Part shown: positions 9,801 through 44,386 of the stretch, piece by piece
Numbering within the stretch: the stretch's first letter is position 1
Layout: the number at the start of each line of letters is the position of its first letter
Virus record (IMG/VR): IMGVR_UViG_3300048074_000119
Direction: 5' to 3' (one strand)
Source of the DNA: a virus
Length of the DNA: 44,525 nt
Notes under the pieces: model-generated
The model's database searches: none
The model's input: only the letters and a program-made list of their open reading frames with translations
What the model was told of the DNA's origin: nothing
Made by a program: the position numbers and the translations under genes

Positions 9801-10713
9801 TCCCGGAGGCCATCCCGGCCGCGATGTGGGCGGGGCGGGGCGGCACGGCGACGGGATAGACCCGGCGCATGAGGTCGACGGGGGCGACGCTCGGGACGAA
9901 GGCCTCGAGATCCTGGGAGGCCCCGGCCTTGTTGGTGATCGACCAGGGGCGGAGCTTGGCGAGGAGCGCCTTGGTGTCGACGTGGTCGATCTCGAGGTCA
10001 GAACTCCTGCTGTAGAGCGAGGACGGGCTCAAGGCAGGGACCGCGGTGCGCGTGCGGCACGCATCGCCGAGGACGGGAAGGGAAGCGGGGTCCAACGCCC
10101 AGGTCCGTACGAGGAGGGCGACCGAGTTGTCGGGCGCAAGCGGCTCGTCGACGATGCGCTTGGCGACGAGGACGACCTGACGGTAGGCCTTGAAGTCGTC
10201 GTCCGGGAACCGGAAGCACCGGAGGTCGGTGTAGCTGCGGGCGAGGGTCTCGGCCGAGGCGGCGAGCGCGTAGTGGGGGACGACGAAGACGAGGACGCCG
10301 CCGCTGGCGAGCGAGTCGGTGAAGCGGGCGAGGAACCGTTCCTCGAGCCGCTCGTGCTCCCGGTCGAGGTCGTAGGGCGGGTTCAGGTACAGGAGCGAGG
10401 CGAAGGGCTTGGTCCAGCGGGCGCGGAAGGCGTCGGCGTGGTGCGCGTCGCTCACGGTGCGCGTGAGTGCGGTGAAGCGCGACTTCTCCATCTCGATGGC
10501 GACCCACTTGGGGGCCTTGGCACCCAGGCGGTTGGTGAGCTCGACGAGGGCAGCGCCGTCCCCGGCGCAGGGGTCGAACGCCACGACGCGGGGGCGAGAG
10601 TAGTTCTCGGCCTCCCGTTCCTCGGGCGGCACGAGCAGCTGCGCGATGAGGGGGATCAGGTGCGGCGGCGTCGGGTAGTACCCGGCGACGGCGACGCTCT
10701 CGAGACGAGCCAT
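6835..10713 (-). CDS. N6-adenine methyltransferase (DUF6094-like) fused to an SF2/SNF2-type helicase
   Basis: GYYPTP, FDPCAGDG (motif I), LYLNPPY (motif IV); LLGEIGSGKS (Walker A), IVDEGHE (DExH), MTGT, QAIGRVDRIGQ (motif VI). Confidence 0.9.
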   Translation of the reverse strand: MARLESVAVAGYYPTPPHLIPLIAQLLVPPEEREAENYSRPRVVAFDPCAGDGAALVELTNRLGAKAPKWVAIEMEKSRFTALTRTVSDAHHADAFRARWTKPFASLLYLNPPYDLDREHERLEERFLARFTDSLASGGVLVFVVPHYALAASAETLARSYTDLRCFRFPDDDFKAYRQVVLVAKRIVDEPLAPDNSVALLVRTWALDPASLPVLGDACRTRTAVPALSPSSLYSRSSDLEIDHVDTKALLAKLRPWSITNKAGASQDLEAFVPSVAPVDLMRRVYPVAVPPRPAHIAAGMASGIFNGARVEPNPGSHLPPLLVKGVFDREYRTIEEKVNKDGEVVGEVQVQQPKMVTTVLDLSTYAYHTLKAGTDVTPGKVAVCEMTAADLLSHYSTSLMRVMEQQCPVLYDPRYHANAVTLHPSPRKLFAAQAHAARALVRLLAQPDRAAILLGEIGSGKSTVSVVAARSLGAKRLLILCPPHLLASWQEQFEAIAPDVDVHVLRDVLDLERLAKAVKAAPERPVVGLLSREAAKLGHAYVGVQGSGCPKCGAPLHGGDFAKTRARCKAQTRHPKDRLAESVVELAIRLQPHYPAEPNVASLLDGRMAQTRGDAYLMRNEKRKRKPAWTVPTGWSGLPIVADRSSPFHHIIFECTRLLRNEVESTIPEVTKKAERALCLSLLALADPRLIVETIHHLGLKEYGMDTGPAAQCLLLLPPGAERDQALVVFEKLVAEKRVQMAGRWYDSYGNPVAKLREHLAEVDKGNKLPEWSFTLSPSHRGGETKIEDDAPGTAAMALRAFRAACTLARFKHSPVCDEPLYQGVADPVRLPLARLISRRHRKLFDFLIVDEGHEYATDGSAQERSAHRLTNMGLPTILMTGTIMNGYAESLFSNFWAISRRFRGEFLREHRSLFVERYGFRKRLVEEKQDGEIIAFGSVTDRVERNHRILGNAPGVLPLFLMTHLLPMSVTLHKSDLSIELPKCEQRNVDLKAEGELFQHYQALRNKLIAQIRSDRFKKDLAGKLWGQLAELPSYLDRATLDVGNDHGDQFAIEYPPTVKDGGIVASVPLLPASTILPKEQWMLDLVEAELEAGRNVLVFGWHTKLMPRLARIIAERIGERVPILHADKVSTAKRQDWINKEVIAKKSRVLVANPVTVQTGLNNLVHFSTEVWMQNPACNPLTFRQAIGRVDRIGQTRPTSIYVPKYANTIQTQALDLLMRKVAVSVATDGLDPESALQAAGVAEDSYLVGLSIGKQLYAMLTDNEALEGGASRPKRLGATKDSSVRLTG

Positions 10714-15663: not shown

Positions 15664-16596
15664 CTACTCCTCCACCCCGGTCCATCGCTTGCCGAGCTTG
15701 CCAGTGCCCAGGACCCAGTTGAGGATCCTCGCGTGGGTGGGGAGCTGCTCGTCCTCGCCCGCGTCGCGGATGTTGACCAAGAGCGCCTCGACCTCGGTCC
15801 GCGTCCGCATGCGGACCCGTTCCTCCTTCTCGTCGGCCTTGGCCTTGCCCTTGGTGGACTCCTTGTCCTTGCTCTTGGGGGGCTTGCCGGTGGCCTCGCG
15901 GACGAAGTCCATCGCGGCGGCGCCCGCCACGATGCCGCTCTCGTTCATCTTCGCGAGCGTTTCGACCTGCTTCTCGCGAGGGAGGTCGGCGAGCTCGATG
16001 GCGACGACCATGGGGATGCCGCCCCCGCGCTTGCCGGTGCGGTTGATCTGCTTGAGGATGGTCGGGTCGAGCTGCAGGACCCGCTGCCAGTTCTCGAGCG
16101 TGTCGCGGCTGACGCCGAAGACGATCTCGGCATCCTCCATCGTGTTGCCGAGGGCGACGTAGCGCTCGAGCTTCTGCGCCTTGATGACGATGTCGTCGTC
16201 CTGCCGCTGCTCGTTCTCCGTGATCATGACCGCGGTCATCGTGGAATCGTTCCCGCGAACGATCTTGGCGGGGACCTTGATCAGTTCGGCGGAGTTGCCC
16301 TCCTCGCGCAGCCGACGGTTGGCCTCGCGGGCCGCCTTGACGCGCTGGCGCCCGTAGACGCACTCGACGATGCAGTGGCCAGTCGTGGGGTCGGTTCCGT
16401 TCTGGCGCACCTCGATGGGCTCGCGCACGCCGAACTTCATGATGTTCTTGACGAGCCACTCCCTGACGGGGAGGTTCACGCGCTCGTCGTAGAGCGGGTG
16501 GGTCTTCTCCGTGACGAGGACGATGTCGTCCGGGTCGAACAAGAACAGGTCCTGACGGCCCTTGGCGCGGTACTTCGTGAGCTGGTCGCTTCCCAT
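15664..16596 (-). CDS. ParB/Srx-like N-terminal domain protein (phage ParB-like)
   Basis: NIMKFGVREPIEVR...YGRQRVKAA (GxxR motif), ITENEQRQD, then an HTH-like segment. Confidence 0.8.
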   Translation of the reverse strand: MGSDQLTKYRAKGRQDLFLFDPDDIVLVTEKTHPLYDERVNLPVREWLVKNIMKFGVREPIEVRQNGTDPTTGHCIVECVYGRQRVKAAREANRRLREEGNSAELIKVPAKIVRGNDSTMTAVMITENEQRQDDDIVIKAQKLERYVALGNTMEDAEIVFGVSRDTLENWQRVLQLDPTILKQINRTGKRGGGIPMVVAIELADLPREKQVETLAKMNESGIVAGAAAMDFVREATGKPPKSKDKESTKGKAKADEKEERVRMRTRTEVEALLVNIRDAGEDEQLPTHARILNWVLGTGKLGKRWTGVEE

Positions 16597-35601: not shown

Positions 35602-36349
35602 CCGCACCGATCGAGGCTCACAACCTCGACAGGCCGGGGCACGTTACCGTGCAGACATGGGCCTTTGCTCTCGCGTTACCGCCCCCGTAGGGTTCACATA
35701 CCAGCGACCCGCGACGCTTGCGCATCTAGCAGGCTCGCCGCTGTGATTTTGCGGCACCCGGGGCTCACAACCCCTTTCCAATCGTCAGAGCACGTCACCG
35801 TGCAACATAGACGCTTTCGCGACCGCCTCTTACGAGCGATTGCCTTGCGGCAACCCTTTGCGGTACCCGGCCTGTTCGACCGTTCCCGGACTCCCGCTAG
35901 GCCGGCCAGGGCTCGCAACCCTGACTTCCTAGCGGACCGTGCCTGTAGCGCGCCGACCTTTGGCGTTTCCATGCTGCTAACACAAGCGCTCGTTTCCGAG
36001 GGGCGCGGGTGAAGCATGGCCCGGAACGATTCCGGGTGAAGCGTTGCACACCATATGCAACCGGTCGACGCGACGTGACGTATGTAGCCTGTACGTAGGC
36101 CAGTCGCTATCCGCGTTGCTCGCGTTGTGAGAGGCCGCGGGGTAATCCCGTGGCATCGCGCCGCTTGCTTCGCTTGCGCACCGTAGGACCGGGCCCCTGT
36201 CACGGGGGGCCGAGTCTTCTAGGACGGAACCAAACCGCCCTAGATGTGCCTGTATTGCCGCCGCATTACCCCTATGGCGGGGGGGAGACGCCTAGTCGGA
36301 AACCGACAGTCAACGTCTACCAACTAGCGTTCCGCCGAACCAAACCCTC

Positions 36350-36444
36350 AAAGCAGAGCTTCTAACTCTGCAATGCAAAGCCAAAGCAGAGCTTGACAAA
36401 GCTCTGCCATGACCAAAGCAGAGGTTCTTGCGAAAGCAGAGCTA
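36350..36444. repeat. Cluster of AAAGCAGAG direct/inverted repeats
   Basis: Direct copies at 36350, 36383, 36415 and 36433; inverted CTCTGC at 36366 and 36402. Confidence 0.8.
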
Positions 36445-36596
36445 CTGGTCGGGCGGTTAGGTAGTATGCGCGTTCAGGCACACGCTAGCGGAACGCGAGG
36501 CGTGCGGCAAGTGTCGAATCGTTCGCGCTCGATCGTGCGAGTGTCGCGCGGCGCATCGGCTCGCACGTGGCGCGCGTGGTCGGCTACCATGTTCGC

Positions 36597-39887: not shown

Positions 39888-40148
39888 ATGAGCCTGTATC
39901 CGGACCAGATCACGCCCGGCAGTGGTTACGACCACCCCGCCTACTTCGACGAGGGCATGTTCGTCATGGTGCCGTGCACGAAGGCGCATGCCGAGGCGAT
40001 CGGTGCGGGCGATCGCTGGAGCGCGACGTGCGGCATCCGGTGCAAGGTGGTGGTCGCCGCGGGTGAGCACGCGCGCGTCGTGCACGAGCGCGCGGGAATC
40101 GATCGCTGGGTCTCGAAGTACGGGTGTCTGGTCAAGGTGGCCGCCTGA
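39888..40148 (+). CDS. Small hypothetical protein
   Basis: MSLYPDQITPG..., TGATG coupling to the phosphatase. Confidence 0.6.
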   Translation: MSLYPDQITPGSGYDHPAYFDEGMFVMVPCTKAHAEAIGAGDRWSATCGIRCKVVVAAGEHARVVHERAGIDRWVSKYGCLVKVAA

Positions 40149-40699
40149 TGTCGGCCGAGGTGCACTTCTACGTGTGCGGTCGGATGCTCGCGCGCGAGTA
40201 CCAGATCGAGTTCGCGCCTTCGGTCATCGTGAGCATCACCGATCCGAAGAGCCACCCCGTGCGCTTCAACGACGCGCCGCAGGCGAAGATCGTGCGGCTC
40301 GAGTTCCACGACTACTGCGACCAGATGCCCCAAGACGTGATCGACGGGCTCCTCAAGGACGGGCATCCGACGCACCTGTTCGATCGGGCGGCCGCGAGGA
40401 CGATCCTGGACGAGGTGCTGCCCGTGGTGATCAACGCGCCGCGCGGCCCGATGCTCATCGTGGTGCATTGCGAGGCGGGCCTCTCTCGTTCGGTGGGCGT
40501 CGCCCGCGCGCTCAGCCGCATCCTCGGCGACAACGGCATCGAGACGGTCGTGCACGGGGTGCACGCAGAGAACACTGGCAACTCGAGGGTCGTGCGCGAG
40601 CTGCTCGAGGAAGCGGAGCGCCGCGGGGTGTACCGCAAGCCGTTCACGCAGGACCCGCCACTGTCGCTGCCGAAGCCCAAGTTGCGCTTCACGGATTGA
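40148..40699 (+). CDS. Cys-dependent (CX5R) tyrosine/dual-specificity phosphatase-like protein
   Basis: VSITDP, LEFHD, VHCEAGLSRS. Confidence 0.85.
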   Translation: MSAEVHFYVCGRMLAREYQIEFAPSVIVSITDPKSHPVRFNDAPQAKIVRLEFHDYCDQMPQDVIDGLLKDGHPTHLFDRAAARTILDEVLPVVINAPRGPMLIVVHCEAGLSRSVGVARALSRILGDNGIETVVHGVHAENTGNSRVVRELLEEAERRGVYRKPFTQDPPLSLPKPKLRFTD

Positions 40700-40715
40700 G
40701 TCCGAAAAATAGTTC

Positions 40716-40744
40716 TTGACAGGTCGGCGATGCCCCATCATCGT
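40716..40744 (+). promoter_or_regulatory. Putative promoter of the tRNA operon
   Basis: A-rich upstream tract GAAAAATAG, perfect TTGACA, N17, weak -10 CATCGT. Confidence 0.55.
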
Positions 40745-40754
40745 GGGAGACAAG

Positions 40755-40904
40755 ATGTTGTGCCCGTCAGCCACCAGCTCCATTCGCACCGCGGCCCACA
40801 GGGGTCACGGCGGCGTGTGGGCTGCGGTCGGCTATGCGGCGGAGTGCACCCAGGATCCCCGAGCCCCCTTCTTCGGGAATACGCGCAAGCCGGAGGAGGG
40901 ATAG
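40755..40904 (+). CDS. Leader peptide (49 aa, all 20 amino acids) of a putative attenuator
   Basis: GGGAGA SD; MLCPSATSSIRTAAHRGHGGVWAAVGYAAECTQDPRAPFFGNTRKPEEG; lies between promoter and terminator. Confidence 0.6.
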   Translation: MLCPSATSSIRTAAHRGHGGVWAAVGYAAECTQDPRAPFFGNTRKPEEG

Positions 40905-40940
40905 GGGCGGACCAAGACGAGCAGCAGCAAGCTCCGTTCG

Positions 40941-40978
40941 AGGCCGCCCAGGGAAACCCAGGCGGCCTTTCTCGTTTC
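40941..40978 (+). terminator. Intrinsic terminator immediately upstream of the first tRNA
   Basis: AGGCCGCC-caGGGaaaCCCa-GGCGGCCT followed by TTCTCGTTTC. Confidence 0.75.
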
Positions 40979-40981
40979 TGA

Positions 40982-41063
40982 CCCGGTGAAGTTCGGCTGG
41001 GACCGATGGGTGGTTGTAACCCACTCGCCGCAGGCTAGTCAGGTTCGATTCCTGGCACCGGGA
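40982..41063 (+). tRNA. tRNA-Tyr(GTA)
   Basis: Cloverleaf; anticodon loop TTGTAAC; long variable arm; GGTTCGATTCC. Confidence 0.8.
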
Positions 41064-41108
41064 CGAAAGGCATCAGATGAAGCGCAAACCAACAAGCCGC
41101 ATCGACGA

Positions 41109-41180
41109 GGAGGCGTAGTGTAGCGGCTGCACAGTGGGCTTTTACCCCATCAGGCGAGAGTTCGAGCCTCTCCGCCTCCA
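41109..41180 (+). tRNA. tRNA-Lys(TTT)
   Basis: Loop CTTTTAC; GGAGGCG/CGCCTCC acceptor. Confidence 0.85.
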
Positions 41181-41188
41181 CGGCACAC

Positions 41189-41261
41189 GGGTCCGAGGTG
41201 TAATGGTCGGCATAGCGAGCTCTTACCTCGACAGGAGGGGGTTCAATTCCCCCCGGACCCA
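41189..41261 (+). tRNA. tRNA-Lys(CTT)
   Basis: Loop CTCTTAC; GGGTCCG/CGGACCC acceptor. Confidence 0.85.
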
Positions 41262-41268
41262 CGATCAT

Positions 41269-41343
41269 TGGGGATTCGCCAAACGGCTAAGGCACCGGTT
41301 TCTGAGTCCGGCACTGGTGGTTCGAGTCCACCATCCCCAACCA
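41269..41343 (+). tRNA. tRNA-Gln(CTG)
   Basis: Loop TTCTGAG; encoded CCA. Confidence 0.9.
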
Positions 41344-41344
41344 C

Positions 41345-41373
41345 TCCCGCAAGGGAACCTGCTCTCTGACAAC
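41345..41373 (+). promoter_or_regulatory. boxB-like hairpin + boxA-like antitermination signal
   Basis: TCCC-GCAA-GGGA then TGCTCTCTGACAAC (rrn boxA approx. TGCTCTTTAACA). Confidence 0.5.
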
Positions 41374-41417
41374 CTGAACTTTCATCCGATCGGCGTTGCA
41401 AGCGCCGCTCGGAAACT

Positions 41418-41494
41418 GTGGCCCTCGCACCTCTGGTGAGTGCAACCGGCTGTTAACCGGTCCAAGCAGGGTTCGATCCCCTGGGGCTACGCCA
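41418..41494 (+). tRNA. tRNA-Asn(GTT)
   Basis: Loop CTGTTAA; G73 + CCA. Confidence 0.85.
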
Positions 41495-41495
41495 C

Positions 41496-41567
41496 GTCCC
41501 CTACGCCTACATGGTGAGGTGCCGCTTTCGTACTGCGGAGAAGCCGGTTCGATTCCGGCAGGGGGCT
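41496..41567 (+). tRNA. tRNA-Thr(CGT)
   Basis: Loop TTCGTAC. Confidence 0.8.
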
Positions 41568-41573
41568 CTACAC

Positions 41574-41645
41574 GGTCCGGAGGCGCAACGGGTTGCGCGC
41601 CTGGTTGAAACCCAGGAGGAGTCGGTTCGAGTCCGACCTGGACCA
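41574..41645 (+). tRNA. tRNA-Phe(GAA)
   Basis: Loop TTGAAAC. Confidence 0.85.
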
Positions 41646-41646
41646 C

Positions 41647-41718
41647 CGGGGTGTCGCACAGCGGTAGTGCTCGTGCTTTGGGTGCACGATGTTGCTGGTT
41701 CGATTCCAGTCACCCCGA
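41647..41718 (+). tRNA. tRNA-Pro(TGG)
   Basis: Loop TTTGGGT; CGGGGTG/CACCCCG acceptor. Confidence 0.85.
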
Positions 41719-41725
41719 CGATCAT

Positions 41726-41802
41726 GGTGGTGTGAGGGAGCAAGAGAACCCGGCCGATTGTGGATCGGTCTTCGACGGGGGCAGTACCCGTACACCACCC
41801 CA
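41726..41802 (+). tRNA. tRNA-His(GTG)
   Basis: G-1:C73; loop TTGTGGA; atypical T-loop GGCAGTA; CCA. Confidence 0.8.
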
Positions 41803-41805
41803 ACT

Positions 41806-41876
41806 GTCCTTGCCGAAGGTCGGCGCTGGCACTCCTAAGGCCAAGCGACGCGGTTCGATTCCGCGCAGGGACGCCA
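41806..41876 (+). tRNA. tRNA-Arg(CCT), short D-arm
   Basis: Loop CTCCTAA; CCA. Confidence 0.7.
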
Positions 41877-41877
41877 T

Positions 41878-41949
41878 GCCTCGTGATGCGACTGGGGTCG
41901 CAGGCCGCCTGTCTCGCGGTTGAGACGGGTTCAATCCCCGTACGAGGCG
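41878..41949 (+). tRNA. tRNA-Asp(GTC)
   Basis: Loop CTGTCTC; G73. Confidence 0.8.
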
Positions 41950-42025
41950 CTGGCTCCCGTGAGCCTCAACACGGGTGGTGCTCCGCCGGATCAGCACCGC
42001 GTGAAATCGCGACACCCCGGCCCAT

Positions 42026-42112
42026 GGAAGATGAATCGCTCAAGGGAGCGAGCCCGGTTGCTAGCCGGTGCGGTGCTTCGGCACTGGGGTTCGAGCCCTC
42101 CGTCTTCCGCCA
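42026..42112 (+). tRNA. tRNA-Ser(GCT)
   Basis: Loop TTGCTAG; long variable arm; G73 + CCA. Confidence 0.85.
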
Positions 42113-42113
42113 C

Positions 42114-42185
42114 ACGGACGAGGCCATGGCGGCCGAGCGGTTTCCAACTCCGCGGGACCAGGTTCGATTCCTGGCGTCCGTGCCA
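42114..42185 (+). tRNA. tRNA-Trp(CCA)
   Basis: Loop TTCCAAC; G73 + CCA. Confidence 0.8.
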
Positions 42186-42274
42186 GCGCATGCCGAGGCT
42201 GCGTGACAGAGCGAGCGGCACCATCAAGGTCGCGAACGTGGGATCGCCAGCACGAGCCGCGCTCTGGTGATGAC

Positions 42275-42348
42275 GGGCTCGTAGCTTGAAGGGCAAGCAC
42301 TTCGCTGGCAGCGAGGAGTCAGGGGTTCGATTCCCCTCGGGTCCACCA
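42275..42348 (+). tRNA. tRNA-Ala(GGC)
   Basis: G3:U70; loop CTGGCAG; CCA. Confidence 0.9.
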
Positions 42349-42353
42349 ACCTT

Positions 42354-42435
42354 GCCGAGGTGGCGGAACGGCAGACGCAGCGAGCTCAAACCTCGCCGCC
42401 CACGTGGCATGCGGGTTCAACTCCCGCTCTCGGCA
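42354..42435 (+). tRNA. tRNA-Leu(CAA)
   Basis: Loop CTCAAAC; variable arm. Confidence 0.9.
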
Positions 42436-42439
42436 CTTC

Positions 42440-42510
42440 GGGGAAGTCGTACAACGGAAGTACCACCGCTTTGCGAGCGGATGATGCCAGTTCGACTCTG
42501 GTCTTCTCCA
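42440..42510 (+). tRNA. tRNA-Ala(TGC)
   Basis: G3:U70; loop TTTGCGA. Confidence 0.8.
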
Positions 42511-42574
42511 CCGCGACTTCGGTGAGCGGCCACGCGCGTTTCGCGCGTCGCTGCCTCATCGCTGTCGCGATCCC

Positions 42575-42645
42575 GGGCTCGTAGCTTGAAGGGCAAGCAC
42601 CTCGTTCGCAATGAGGAGTTGGGGGTTCGATTCCCCTCGGGTCCA
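42575..42645 (+). tRNA. tRNA-Ala(CGC)
   Basis: Near-duplicate of the 42275 copy; loop TTCGCAA. Confidence 0.85.
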
Positions 42646-42721
42646 CCCAGCTGGCGTGACCTCTTCGTTCGCGGGCGCCAACGTGCCGAAGAGCGGAGTG
42701 GTGGCGTCAGCTGGACCACAT

Positions 42722-42793
42722 GCCGGTCAGGTCCCCGTGGGGGGGCGCGTCCTTGGTACGGACGAGGGGCGGGTTCGACTCCCGCGACTGGCT
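42722..42793 (+). tRNA. tRNA-Thr(GGT)
   Basis: Loop TTGGTAC. Confidence 0.8.
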
Positions 42794-42810
42794 CTACCCG
42801 AAAGGGGAAC

Positions 42811-42882
42811 GCGGGTGCGGCGCGATGGTCGCGCGCGGGCCTTCCAAGCCCTGAGGTGCCGGTTCGAGTCCGGTCACTCGCT
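42811..42882 (+). tRNA. tRNA-Gly(TCC)
   Basis: Loop CTTCCAA; U73. Confidence 0.85.
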
Positions 42883-42934
42883 CTGATGTTGACGGTCACT
42901 TGACGGCATGGCCCGCACATGGGTAACTTCGGGC

Positions 42935-43525
42935 ATGTCCGAACCGAAGGTCCTGGGAGAAGTCATCGGCGACGTCATGGAGAAGATGGACGCTCCGCCG
43001 AGCCTCGTCGCAGCGCTCCGTGCGGCGGGGCAGCAGCACTGCGGTGCGCCGCCGTCCACCATGCGGACCACGGTCGTGGGCTTGGACAAGAAGGACGGCA
43101 TGCCCAACATGATCACGAGGCCGCTCGAGCGCCCGTTCCGGATGGAGCGGGTCGTCGTCAGTCTCGATGTCGCACGCGCCGACCTGACGCCCGAGGAGCA
43201 GCTCGAGCAGATCACGATCGGCAAGAGGGAGTTGCTGGCGAATCCGATTCCGCTCAAGGTCGTCGTCAACCCGACGACCGCGATCCGGATGCTTCTCACG
43301 GAAGAGGAGGACGCGCTCTACGCCGCGGGCCTCCCCATCCCCCACTGGAACGAGTTGGCGGCGAAGGTCGACGCAGAGGTGGGCGTGATGCTCGACATGA
43401 TGATCGACGGCGACTGGTCGGAGAAGGGGGACTCGATCGAGTTCCGCTTCAGCGAGAAGGCGGCGGCCCGAATCGTCAACATGGCGATGTTCGGCGCGGT
43501 GGTGGTGGAGGATTCTGGAGGGTAA
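42935..43525 (+). CDS. Hypothetical protein inside the tRNA array
   Basis: MSEPKVLGEV..., high GC3; TTGACG-N18-TAACTT upstream; stop lies inside tRNA-Ser. Confidence 0.7.
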   Translation: MSEPKVLGEVIGDVMEKMDAPPSLVAALRAAGQQHCGAPPSTMRTTVVGLDKKDGMPNMITRPLERPFRMERVVVSLDVARADLTPEEQLEQITIGKRELLANPIPLKVVVNPTTAIRMLLTEEEDALYAAGLPIPHWNELAAKVDAEVGVMLDMMIDGDWSEKGDSIEFRFSEKAAARIVNMAMFGAVVVEDSGG

Positions 43526-43599
43526 TGCTCAGTGGCGGGCAACCGGTCTCGAAAACCGGGTCACGGTGAAACGTGGGGGTTCGACTCCTCTACCCTCCG
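43517..43599 (+). tRNA. tRNA-Ser(CGA)
   Basis: Loop CTCGAAA; variable arm; G73. Confidence 0.85.
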
Positions 43600-43603
43600 C
43601 AAT

Positions 43604-43676
43604 GCGTGTGAGGCCGACTGGTGAGGCACTTCCTTGCCAAGGAAGGACAGGACGGGTTCGATTCCCGCCACACGCT
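43604..43676 (+). tRNA. tRNA-Gly(GCC)
   Basis: Loop TTGCCAA; U73. Confidence 0.85.
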
Positions 43677-43678
43677 CG

Positions 43679-43954
43679 ATGGCCAACAAGTCCGATGGGT
43701 TGCTGCGCGACCTCGTGAACGTGCTCGACTCGATCGAGCGGTGCAAGAGCTGCCAGCACCTGCTCAACGAGGAGGCGGCCGACGAGTGCCACCATGGGTC
43801 GCTCGAGCGGGCGCTGGGGCGCGCGAGAACGCACCTGGCGAGCGGCGTCCTGCGCGAGCTCGCCCCGGTAGACTCCTCCACGCTGGACGAGGCTGGGCCT
43901 TCTAAGCCCGCGCCGCCGGGTTCGATTCCTGGGGAGGGGGCGACGCACCCATAG
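43679..43954 (+). CDS. Small hypothetical protein overlapping tRNA-Arg and the start of tRNA-Glu
   Basis: MANKSDGLLRDLVNVLDSIERCKSC...; coding-like GC3 over the first ~60 codons. Confidence 0.5.
   Translation: MANKSDGLLRDLVNVLDSIERCKSCQHLLNEEAADECHHGSLERALGRARTHLASGVLRELAPVDSSTLDEAGPSKPAPPGSIPGEGATHP
43873..43940 (+). tRNA. tRNA-Arg(TCT), short D-arm (possibly pseudo)
   Basis: Loop CTTCTAA; GGTTCGATTCC; CTCCTCC/GGAGGGG acceptor. Confidence 0.6.
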
Positions 43955-44018
43955 GCTAGGTGGTAAGGCCACGCGCCTTTCAAGCGCGGGATGCTGGGTT
44001 CGACTCCCGCTGGGTGCA
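43945..44018 (+). tRNA. tRNA-Glu(TTC)
   Basis: Loop CTTTCAA. Confidence 0.85.
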
Positions 44019-44022
44019 CAAC

Positions 44023-44095
44023 GACGTGGTGCTCCAGAGAGCGCCGCGGTCTGCAAAACCGCGTAGATGGGGTGCAACTCCCCTCCACGTCTCCA
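44023..44095 (+). tRNA. tRNA-Cys(GCA)
   Basis: Loop CTGCAAA; U73 + CCA. Confidence 0.8.
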
Positions 44096-44096
44096 C

Positions 44097-44171
44097 GGTC
44101 CCGTCGGCTAAGGGTTAGGCCGCCGCTCTCTCACAGCGGAAATGGGGGTTCGACTCCCCTCGGGATCACCA
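44097..44171 (+). tRNA. tRNA-Glu(CTC)
   Basis: Loop CTCTCAC; CCA. Confidence 0.9.
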
Positions 44172-44386
44172 GCTCCTGCTCCGGTGCAAGAGGCACCTAC
44201 CAGGAACCGTTCGGCCGAGCGGTTCTTGGACCAGGTCCCGAGCAGGCATGGTCTGAACATGAGGCGGCGATGGCCGTTTCCGTGGACAGCATGGCACCAT
44301 TTGCCCCCACCGGTGGATCCGGCGCCGACACTACGAATGTTGGTTGCGGTCGTTCAATTCGACCTGGGGGTGCTACGATGCCGGGG

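Follow-up and report, generated by a model that had tools for sequence, protein, structure and literature searches.

What controls the transfer RNA (tRNA) genes that a phage carries? tRNA genes are usually treated as constitutive or as controlled by growth rate, and the tRNA sets of phages have been attributed to codon usage or to escape from defences that target tRNAs, with little known about their regulation. The question is raised here by virus record IMGVR_UViG_3300048074_000119, a stretch of 44,525 nucleotides (nt) that is called the window throughout. Its main tRNA operon, an array on the plus strand, is preceded by a leader that contains a 49-codon open reading frame (ORF) and a predicted intrinsic terminator. 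We tentatively read this leader as a ribosome-mediated transcription attenuator driven by translation of the ORF, a proposal that the sequence supports at somewhat less than even confidence. That some form of attenuation takes place before the array appears likely, because the region's best terminator stands between the array and its only recognisable promoter. The elements themselves are real, and it is unlikely that their combination is accidental; what we infer from them is that the promoter is active, that the ORF is translated, that the hairpin terminates transcription and that stalling is linked to readthrough.

Predicted architecture of the leader

The leader ORF extends from an ATG at 40755 to a TAG at 40902–40904 (40755–40904; all leader features described here lie on the plus strand). 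Its conceptual translation bears out an earlier note on this DNA: the 49 sense codons contain all 20 amino acids and comprise 32 distinct codons. Finding every residue type in a frame of this length is rare, as it occurs in 0.24% of 49-residue windows free of stop codons across all six frames of this DNA, in 0.15–0.46% of simulated ORFs and in 0/72 real ORFs of 40–60 codons. The number of distinct codons, 32, is ordinary (43–62% of simulations). Eleven of the leader codons (TTG, TCA, ATT, AGG, GGT, GCT, TAT, GAT, CGA, AAT and GGA) have a relative synonymous usage of ≤0.10 in the phage genes, and the G+C content at codon positions 1, 2 and 3 is 0.60, 0.64 and 0.82, respectively. Gene callers have called the ORF on many public contigs.

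Between the ORF and the array lies a hairpin at 40940–40968 (−21.7 kcal/mol), followed by the U-rich tail TTTCTCGTTTCT at 40968–40979. Together they form the top terminator-like site predicted on either strand of the 44.5-kb window. The tail ends 3 nt before the tRNA-Tyr gene (start at 40982), where the earlier note had placed an intrinsic terminator.

Upstream of the hairpin, the segment that abuts the stop codon, region 2 (GGGCGGACC, 40905–40913), has two alternative partners: GGCCGCCC in the terminator 5′ arm (40942–40949) and GGAUCCCC within the ORF (40853–40860). Pairing with the latter creates the basal helix (40853–40860/40906–40913) of hairpin SL2, which has a predicted stability of −27.7 kcal/mol and an apical stem of 11 base pairs (bp; 40866–40876/40890–40900). 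Pairing of region 2 with 40940–40953 gives a duplex, 2:3, of −17.4 kcal/mol, and the terminator hairpin itself joins regions 3 and 4. All three pairings of the 1:2 / 2:3 / 3:4 layout that had been described are present, the 1:2 hairpin spanning 40853–40913. The minimum-free-energy (MFE) fold contains two further hairpins: SL1, an imperfect hairpin of ~35 bp at 40759–40848 that covers codons 2–31, and the small SL3 at 40919–40939, between regions 2 and 3.

The order in which these structures are predicted to appear agrees with attenuation. In simulated folding of the nascent RNA, SL1 and SL2 form first, 2:3 belongs to the MFE structure of an RNA that ends at 40955 or 40960, and the terminator replaces 2:3 only once its 3′ arm has been made. 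2:3 precedes 3:4 in the growing RNA, which is the kinetic order that attenuation requires. The layout as a whole is also uncommon. We defined a generic attenuator as a Shine-Dalgarno (SD)-like sequence ahead of a start codon, a reading frame that runs for 20 codons or more, and a stop codon whose next 15 nt can pair with the terminator 5′ arm at ≤−15 kcal/mol. Such a layout arises in 1.2% of dinucleotide shuffles of 40722–40939; the joint layout arises in 0.5% when only ATG starts are allowed and in 0.1% when an ATG and at least 40 codons are demanded.

Upstream of the ORF, the −35 hexamer TTGACA (40716–40721) is followed after 17 nt by a weak −10-like hexamer, CATCGT (40739–40744), and by GGGAG (40745–40749), which lies 5 nt 5′ of the ATG and resembles either an SD sequence or a G+C-rich promoter discriminator. 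The promoter and SD elements listed in the earlier note are thus both in place. Each of these motifs is invariant among six natural variants of the locus described below; the −35 hexamer and the whole block from CCCATCATCGT to the ATG are unchanged, and five positions of the spacer vary. An A-rich stretch just 5′ of the −35 hexamer (40703–40715), in which the A run is kept and the flanks vary, is possibly an UP element. TTGACA occurs twice in the window against 8.4 expected occurrences, and the copy at 40716 is the sole sigma-70-like candidate on the plus strand that heads the array. A search of that strand for sigma-70-like sequences found no other promoter for the array; an alternative further upstream, TTGCGC-17-AAAAAT, was rejected, as the T of its −10 element is lost in three variants.

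From these elements we propose the following sequence of events. Transcripts that start at the TTGACA promoter or arrive from the upstream operon would have to cross the hairpin at 40940–40968 before reaching tRNA-Tyr. By default, an untranslated RNA would fold into SL1, SL2 (1:2), SL3 and the terminator (3:4), and the array would be off. Fast translation would have the same outcome, as a ribosome at the TAG would mask region 2 and let the terminator form, and so would a stall in codons 1–28, which would leave SL2 intact. A delay with the A site at about codons 29–46 (A E C T Q D P R A P F F G N T R K P) would open SL2 and free region 2; this could then pair with the terminator 5′ arm while the 3′ arm is still unmade, and the polymerase would enter the array. 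In this way, a slowdown in decoding across a wide range of codons would lead to more synthesis of the phage's own tRNAs.

The set of codons that could be sensed is narrower than had been claimed. The earlier note described sensing of all codons, which is overstated, as the geometry of the ribosome footprint would permit readthrough only from stalls at about codons 29–46. These correspond to ~18 codons for ~12 amino acids; the array supplies tRNAs for 14/18 of these codons, or for 16/18 if Pro-UGG reads CCC. We consider it unlikely that the leader is a general sensor of decoding capacity, in which shortage of, or damage to, host tRNAs slows the ribosome and turns the replacement tRNAs on. Such a sensor would sample 20 amino acids, many of them through codons with a relative usage of ≤0.10 in the phage, and its triggers could be starvation, host shut-off or an anticodon-nuclease defence; the link to tRNA damage and anticodon nucleases is speculation. 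If it were true, translation and tRNA supply would be joined in a feedback loop that has been described for no tRNA operon.

Parallels in phage phiCbK and in known leaders

The same design of mini-ORF, terminator and tRNA genes recurs in an unrelated cultured phage, the Caulobacter phage phiCbK (NC_019405), which raises the odds of a ribosome-mediated mechanism in the present leader. The depositors of the phiCbK genome annotated predicted terminators at 49745–49769 and 51465–51502, directly 5′ of tRNA blocks. The 45-codon gp335 stops 68 nt short of the terminator in front of a Pro-Pro-Lys-Lys-Leu-Leu-Leu-Ser-Ser block, and 23/45 of its residues are Ser, Leu, Pro or Lys, compared with a background of 0.22 (P = 1.6e-5). 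The end of an ORF of 32 codons with the core QFVRQIQVVRNI lies 26 nt upstream of the terminator ahead of a Phe-Val-Ile-Ile-Val-Gln-Gln-Gly block; for this one the enrichment over the whole ORF gives P = 0.05. The sites recorded in this genome (L021/L022) are 48120–48166, 49540–49769 and 51465–51502.

Like the leader studied here, the phiCbK units consist of a short ORF, a predicted intrinsic terminator and tRNA genes within ~10–130 nt. The mini-ORFs of phiCbK, which are putative leaders, mirror in their composition the specificities of the downstream tRNAs, and each serves a small block, whereas in the window a single leader with all 20 residues stands before a near-complete tRNA set, and the two share no sequence homology. 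With such a leader and such a set, a test for matching codons therefore has low power here. A literature search found no paper that describes the phiCbK units. As phiCbK is cultured and genetically tractable, the idea can be tested at the bench in that phage; the present one is known only from metagenomes.

Ribosome-mediated attenuation is classically found in amino-acid operons, such as those headed by trpL, hisL, leuL, thrL and the multivalent ilvGMEDA leader of E. coli and Salmonella. The 3:4 helix of the trp leader is the most stable one, so that control is kinetic, and in the leader of the window, too, the predicted terminator exceeds the antiterminator in stability. The putative attenuator shares with the trpL/hisL type a short 5′ ORF, a stop codon that abuts region 2, mutually exclusive 1:2, 2:3 and 3:4 pairings, and a predicted terminator before the regulated genes. 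It differs from this type in that tRNAs would be gated instead of biosynthetic enzymes, and in that a mixture of codons for ~12 amino acids takes the place of a run of a single codon. Furthermore, its ORF is long (49 codons), and a conserved hairpin of 35 bp takes up the first 30 of them.

Leaders that respond to broad signals are known as well. The leaders of whiB7/wblC in Actinobacteria are reported to combine an upstream ORF with a terminator and to sense general translation stress (PMC10274678), and toiL-topAI of E. coli reportedly has an upstream-ORF leader that also senses translation stress, with toiL acting through Rho (PMC12121999). A ribosome stalled on the leader ORF reportedly alters downstream expression in response to broad signals and not to a single amino acid, which is also what we predict for the leader in the window. 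Mycobacteria contain attenuators with leaderless poly-Cys small ORFs (bioRxiv 10.1101/834739), which provide a precedent for a leaderless or near-leaderless leader ORF and are relevant to the distance between promoter and ATG in the window. All of these leaders control bacterial protein-coding stress genes, and none has been reported in a phage or as a gate in front of tRNA genes.

The leader also resembles a T-box riboswitch in its length of ~230 nt, its long first stem and a choice between terminator and antiterminator that would be tied to tRNA status, and the segment after the stop codon, AGGGGCGGACC, is loosely similar to the T-box motif. It differs in SL1, which is a near-continuous duplex without a specifier loop or K-turn. 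A T-box (RF00230) was rejected, as no covariance-model match was obtained at E ≤ 1 over 4 kb or at E ≤ 10 for the leader alone; no other Rfam family matched the leader either.

Full-text literature searches turned up no account of phage tRNA genes being controlled by a leader peptide. If the proposal holds, decoding speed would feed back directly on tRNA supply, a logic so far known only for amino-acid, synthetase and stress genes, and the phage would gauge the translation state of its host and answer with its own tRNAs.

Natural variants and competing explanations

Protein look-ups led to six variants of the locus: the window (with identical copies L001–L006 and L012–L014), L008, L010, L011, L015–L017, and L018. 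All six keep the reading frame, the position of the stop codon and all 20 residue types. The sole indel within the ORF is 3 nt long and three 1-nt indels all fall outside it, which is weak support given the small number of events. L015 lacks one G of the run that separates the stop codon from GCGGACC (alignment gap at ~40904–40905), L018 has one extra T in the U-rich tail, and the SL3 loop differs by a 3-nt indel, GCA. SL2 is nearly invariant (L010 has one broken terminal pair, L015 a single change in a loop), and the terminator hairpin is identical in all variants.

More distant relatives of the locus were not found among viral contigs, searched with two proteins and two DNA motifs, or among metagenome contigs, searched with a tRNA-Tyr motif. 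HMMER without profiles, run against 1.8 billion proteins, returned remote relatives only (30–49% identity). The one closer relative examined, P0003 (45–46% identity), has no adjoining tRNA array, and the relatives of the protein encoded inside the array turned out to come from the two lineages already in hand, their contigs breaking off within the array.

Several observations weigh against control by translation of the ORF. To judge from the 17-nt spacer and the −10 hexamer, a transcript from TTGACA-17-CATCGT would start near 40750–40752, which leaves the GGGAG sequence untranscribed. The claim that promoter and SD serve one transcript does not hold in its simplest form, as the SD lies 5′ of the predicted RNA start. 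The ORF might instead be translated from transcripts of the upstream operon or in a near-leaderless manner, or GGGAG might be the discriminator of a stable-RNA promoter. Moreover, SL1 begins 4 nt past the AUG and buries codons 2–31, and initiation beside such a structure should be poor unless the ribosome binds during transcription. At the other end of the leader, the U tract of the terminator is interrupted by CTCG.

The predicted switch also meets difficulties. Folding at equilibrium with ribosome footprints at 16 positions gave the terminator in every case; the switch could act only kinetically, and towards a kinetic switch this folding is neutral. An antiterminator duplex as good as the one observed is found in 8%, 34% and 79% of shuffles when 41, 85 and 181 nt of upstream sequence are considered, respectively. 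The antiterminator that had been proposed exists as a pairing, which by itself is not above chance and in which no covariation can be read. Regions 1–4 (1:2, 2:3 and 3:4) do not vary among the six variants and lend no covariation support; the comparison of leaders confirms the kept frame and residue set, and in the antiterminator it meets invariance. A roster of leader codons against array anticodons was dropped, as the 35/48 leader codons read by array tRNAs are not a significant excess (P ~0.05–0.08) in a test of low power, the array reading 61% of all codons in the phage genes.

The invariance of the 3′ half may have a simpler cause. Between the window and L011, nucleotide identity is 83% in the neighbouring protein gene, 87% in the spacer up to the ATG and 92.5% in the first half of the ORF. 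From 40851 through the whole U tract there is no substitution, and the first tRNAs with their spacers are 97.6–100% identical over ~650 nt. The unchanged half may simply belong to a stretch of low divergence (~650 nt, ~1% diverged) or recent exchange and need not reflect constraint.

The substitutions in the first half, in turn, point to selection at the level of RNA. The 13 substitution events in the ORF are distributed 6/5/2 over the codon positions, compared with 39/27/48 in the neighbouring gene, and 11 of them change the residue, often radically; on this pattern the peptide is apparently not conserved as a protein. All substitutions at paired positions of SL1 (6/6) keep the pairing, including the series G-C to G-U to A-U at 40791:40808, and five others fall in loops or bulges, so that pairs and not residues appear to be kept. 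A formal covariation score for SL1 was not above a column-shuffle control with these six sequences.

This pattern fits a non-coding structured leader with an incidental ORF, in which a leaky or factor-controlled terminator would set the timing and amount of array expression and SL1–SL3 would serve processing (for example, as an RNase III-type duplex), stability, or the binding of a phage or host antitermination factor. We regard this explanation as possible, if on balance rather unlikely. It would account for the G+C content at codon position 2 (0.64 versus 0.42 in real genes), for the 11/48 codons that are rare, for the overlap of the SD with the −10-to-start region of the promoter and for an antiterminator at chance level, and calculation from base composition predicts an open frame of this length in about a quarter of sequences. 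It leaves unexplained the presence of all 20 residues, the rarity of the joint layout, and the phiCbK units with their matching composition, and the leader belongs to no known RNA family at E ≤ 10 in Rfam, T-box included.

The leader could also be a separate small unit, encoding either a stable RNA of ~225 nt or the mRNA of a 49-residue protein, with the tRNAs made from the fraction of transcripts that reads through. A promoter, a structured RNA and a strong terminator are the usual anatomy of a small RNA gene, and loops and stems of the 3′ half are alike unchanged among the variants. A protein product is contradicted by the lack of protein-like selection, with radical changes and only 2/13 substitutions at third positions, and by the lack of relatives outside the lineage. 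Searches for the peptide among 5.8 billion proteins found only three clusters, all within this lineage, and Pfam gave no match; a conserved small protein was rejected on the substitution pattern, the codon usage and the absence of relatives beyond the lineage. Since no other array promoter was found, an efficient terminator would leave >20 tRNAs unexpressed, and such a unit would itself amount to an attenuator. We consider this explanation quite improbable.

Least probable by our estimate, and indeed very doubtful, is coincidence, that is, an ordinary G+C-rich intergenic leader whose hairpin does no more than terminate the protein operon upstream: at 65–68% G+C, long ORFs and complementary GC-rich segments are common, the fold of the whole leader is unexceptional (z = −1.5) and the striking features were chosen after the fact, but the joint layout (0.1–1.2%), the all-20 property (~0.3%), the preservation of structure by the SL1 substitutions, and the conservation of the −35 hexamer and the −10-to-ATG block next to a variable spacer all speak against it.

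Taken together, what stands of the leader-peptide attenuator described in the earlier note is its topology, its rare joint layout, the rank of its terminator and its parallel in phiCbK; sensing of all codons, the coupling of promoter and SD, and an antiterminator above chance do not stand.

The locus and its tRNA array

The source DNA has a G+C content of 65–71% over the 44.5-kb window. DNA and protein comparisons found no close relative of the window among cultured phages; its DNA is also present on many metagenomic contigs, the longest of which, among the matches listed, has 125,688 bases. From ~36630 onward, every gene in the window lies on the plus strand.

The array starts at 40982 with tRNA-Tyr and extends past the end of the window; the part followed here (40982–44171, plus strand) includes two small protein genes with a coding signal, at 42935–43525 and ~43679–43954. 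The number of tRNAs depends on the tool used. ARAGORN with default settings reports 20, Rfam adds a clear Phe-GAA tRNA at 41574–41645 (60.7 bits) that default ARAGORN missed, and relaxed ARAGORN with folding adds an Asp-GTC tRNA at ~41877–41949. T-loop motifs at 41853, 43920 and 44352 mark two to three further non-canonical units. The tally is 22 firm and 24–25 possible tRNAs, so that the 25 counted in the earlier note are fair as an upper figure, with only 22 of them firm.

The units with these T-loop motifs (within 41800–41949, which also takes in the Asp-GTC tRNA, and at 43863–43941 and 44303–44373) have irregular D or anticodon arms, and the one at ~41800–41876 has an Arg-CCU-like anticodon loop, CUCCUAA. 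Another T-loop-like sequence, GTTCGAGGC, lies at 40936–40944, just before and overlapping the terminator 5′ arm, and could be a coincidence or a tRNA remnant. On contig L012, which carries an identical leader, the tRNA-Tyr gene (10228–10304, corresponding to 40982–41064 in the window) lacks 6 nt of the variable arm relative to the window. The spacer after tRNA-Gln contains TGCTCTCTGACAAC (41361–41374; its first base is C in L008), a sequence that we take to resemble the boxA of E. coli rrn operons. As it lies 3′ of the leader terminator, it would therefore be of no help to a polymerase passing that terminator. A second leader of similar design was not found before the next tRNA block (L012, 14273–14419).

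Approximately 5.9 kb 3′ of the leader ORF, at 15852–15889 of L012, TTGACG and TATAAT are separated by 17 nt and followed after 6 nt by the ATG of a gene for 280 residues. This is plausibly a near-consensus promoter for a leaderless mRNA, of a kind used in this phage, which suggests a host able to use sigma-70-type promoters and to translate leaderless mRNAs.

The gene directly upstream of the leader (40148–40699) encodes a protein of 183 residues that matches phrog_5614 and, weakly, the dual-specificity phosphatase and RapZ C-terminal families. This protein evolves fast, with 69% residue identity between lineages, beside the nearly invariant leader. Further upstream, the divergent intergenic region that heads the plus-strand operon (36340–36445) contains about five copies of AAAGCAGAGC(T) and a 10-bp inverted repeat (36385–36408), whose loop holds the only other TTGACA in the window; these repeats may be an operator or an origin-like cluster.

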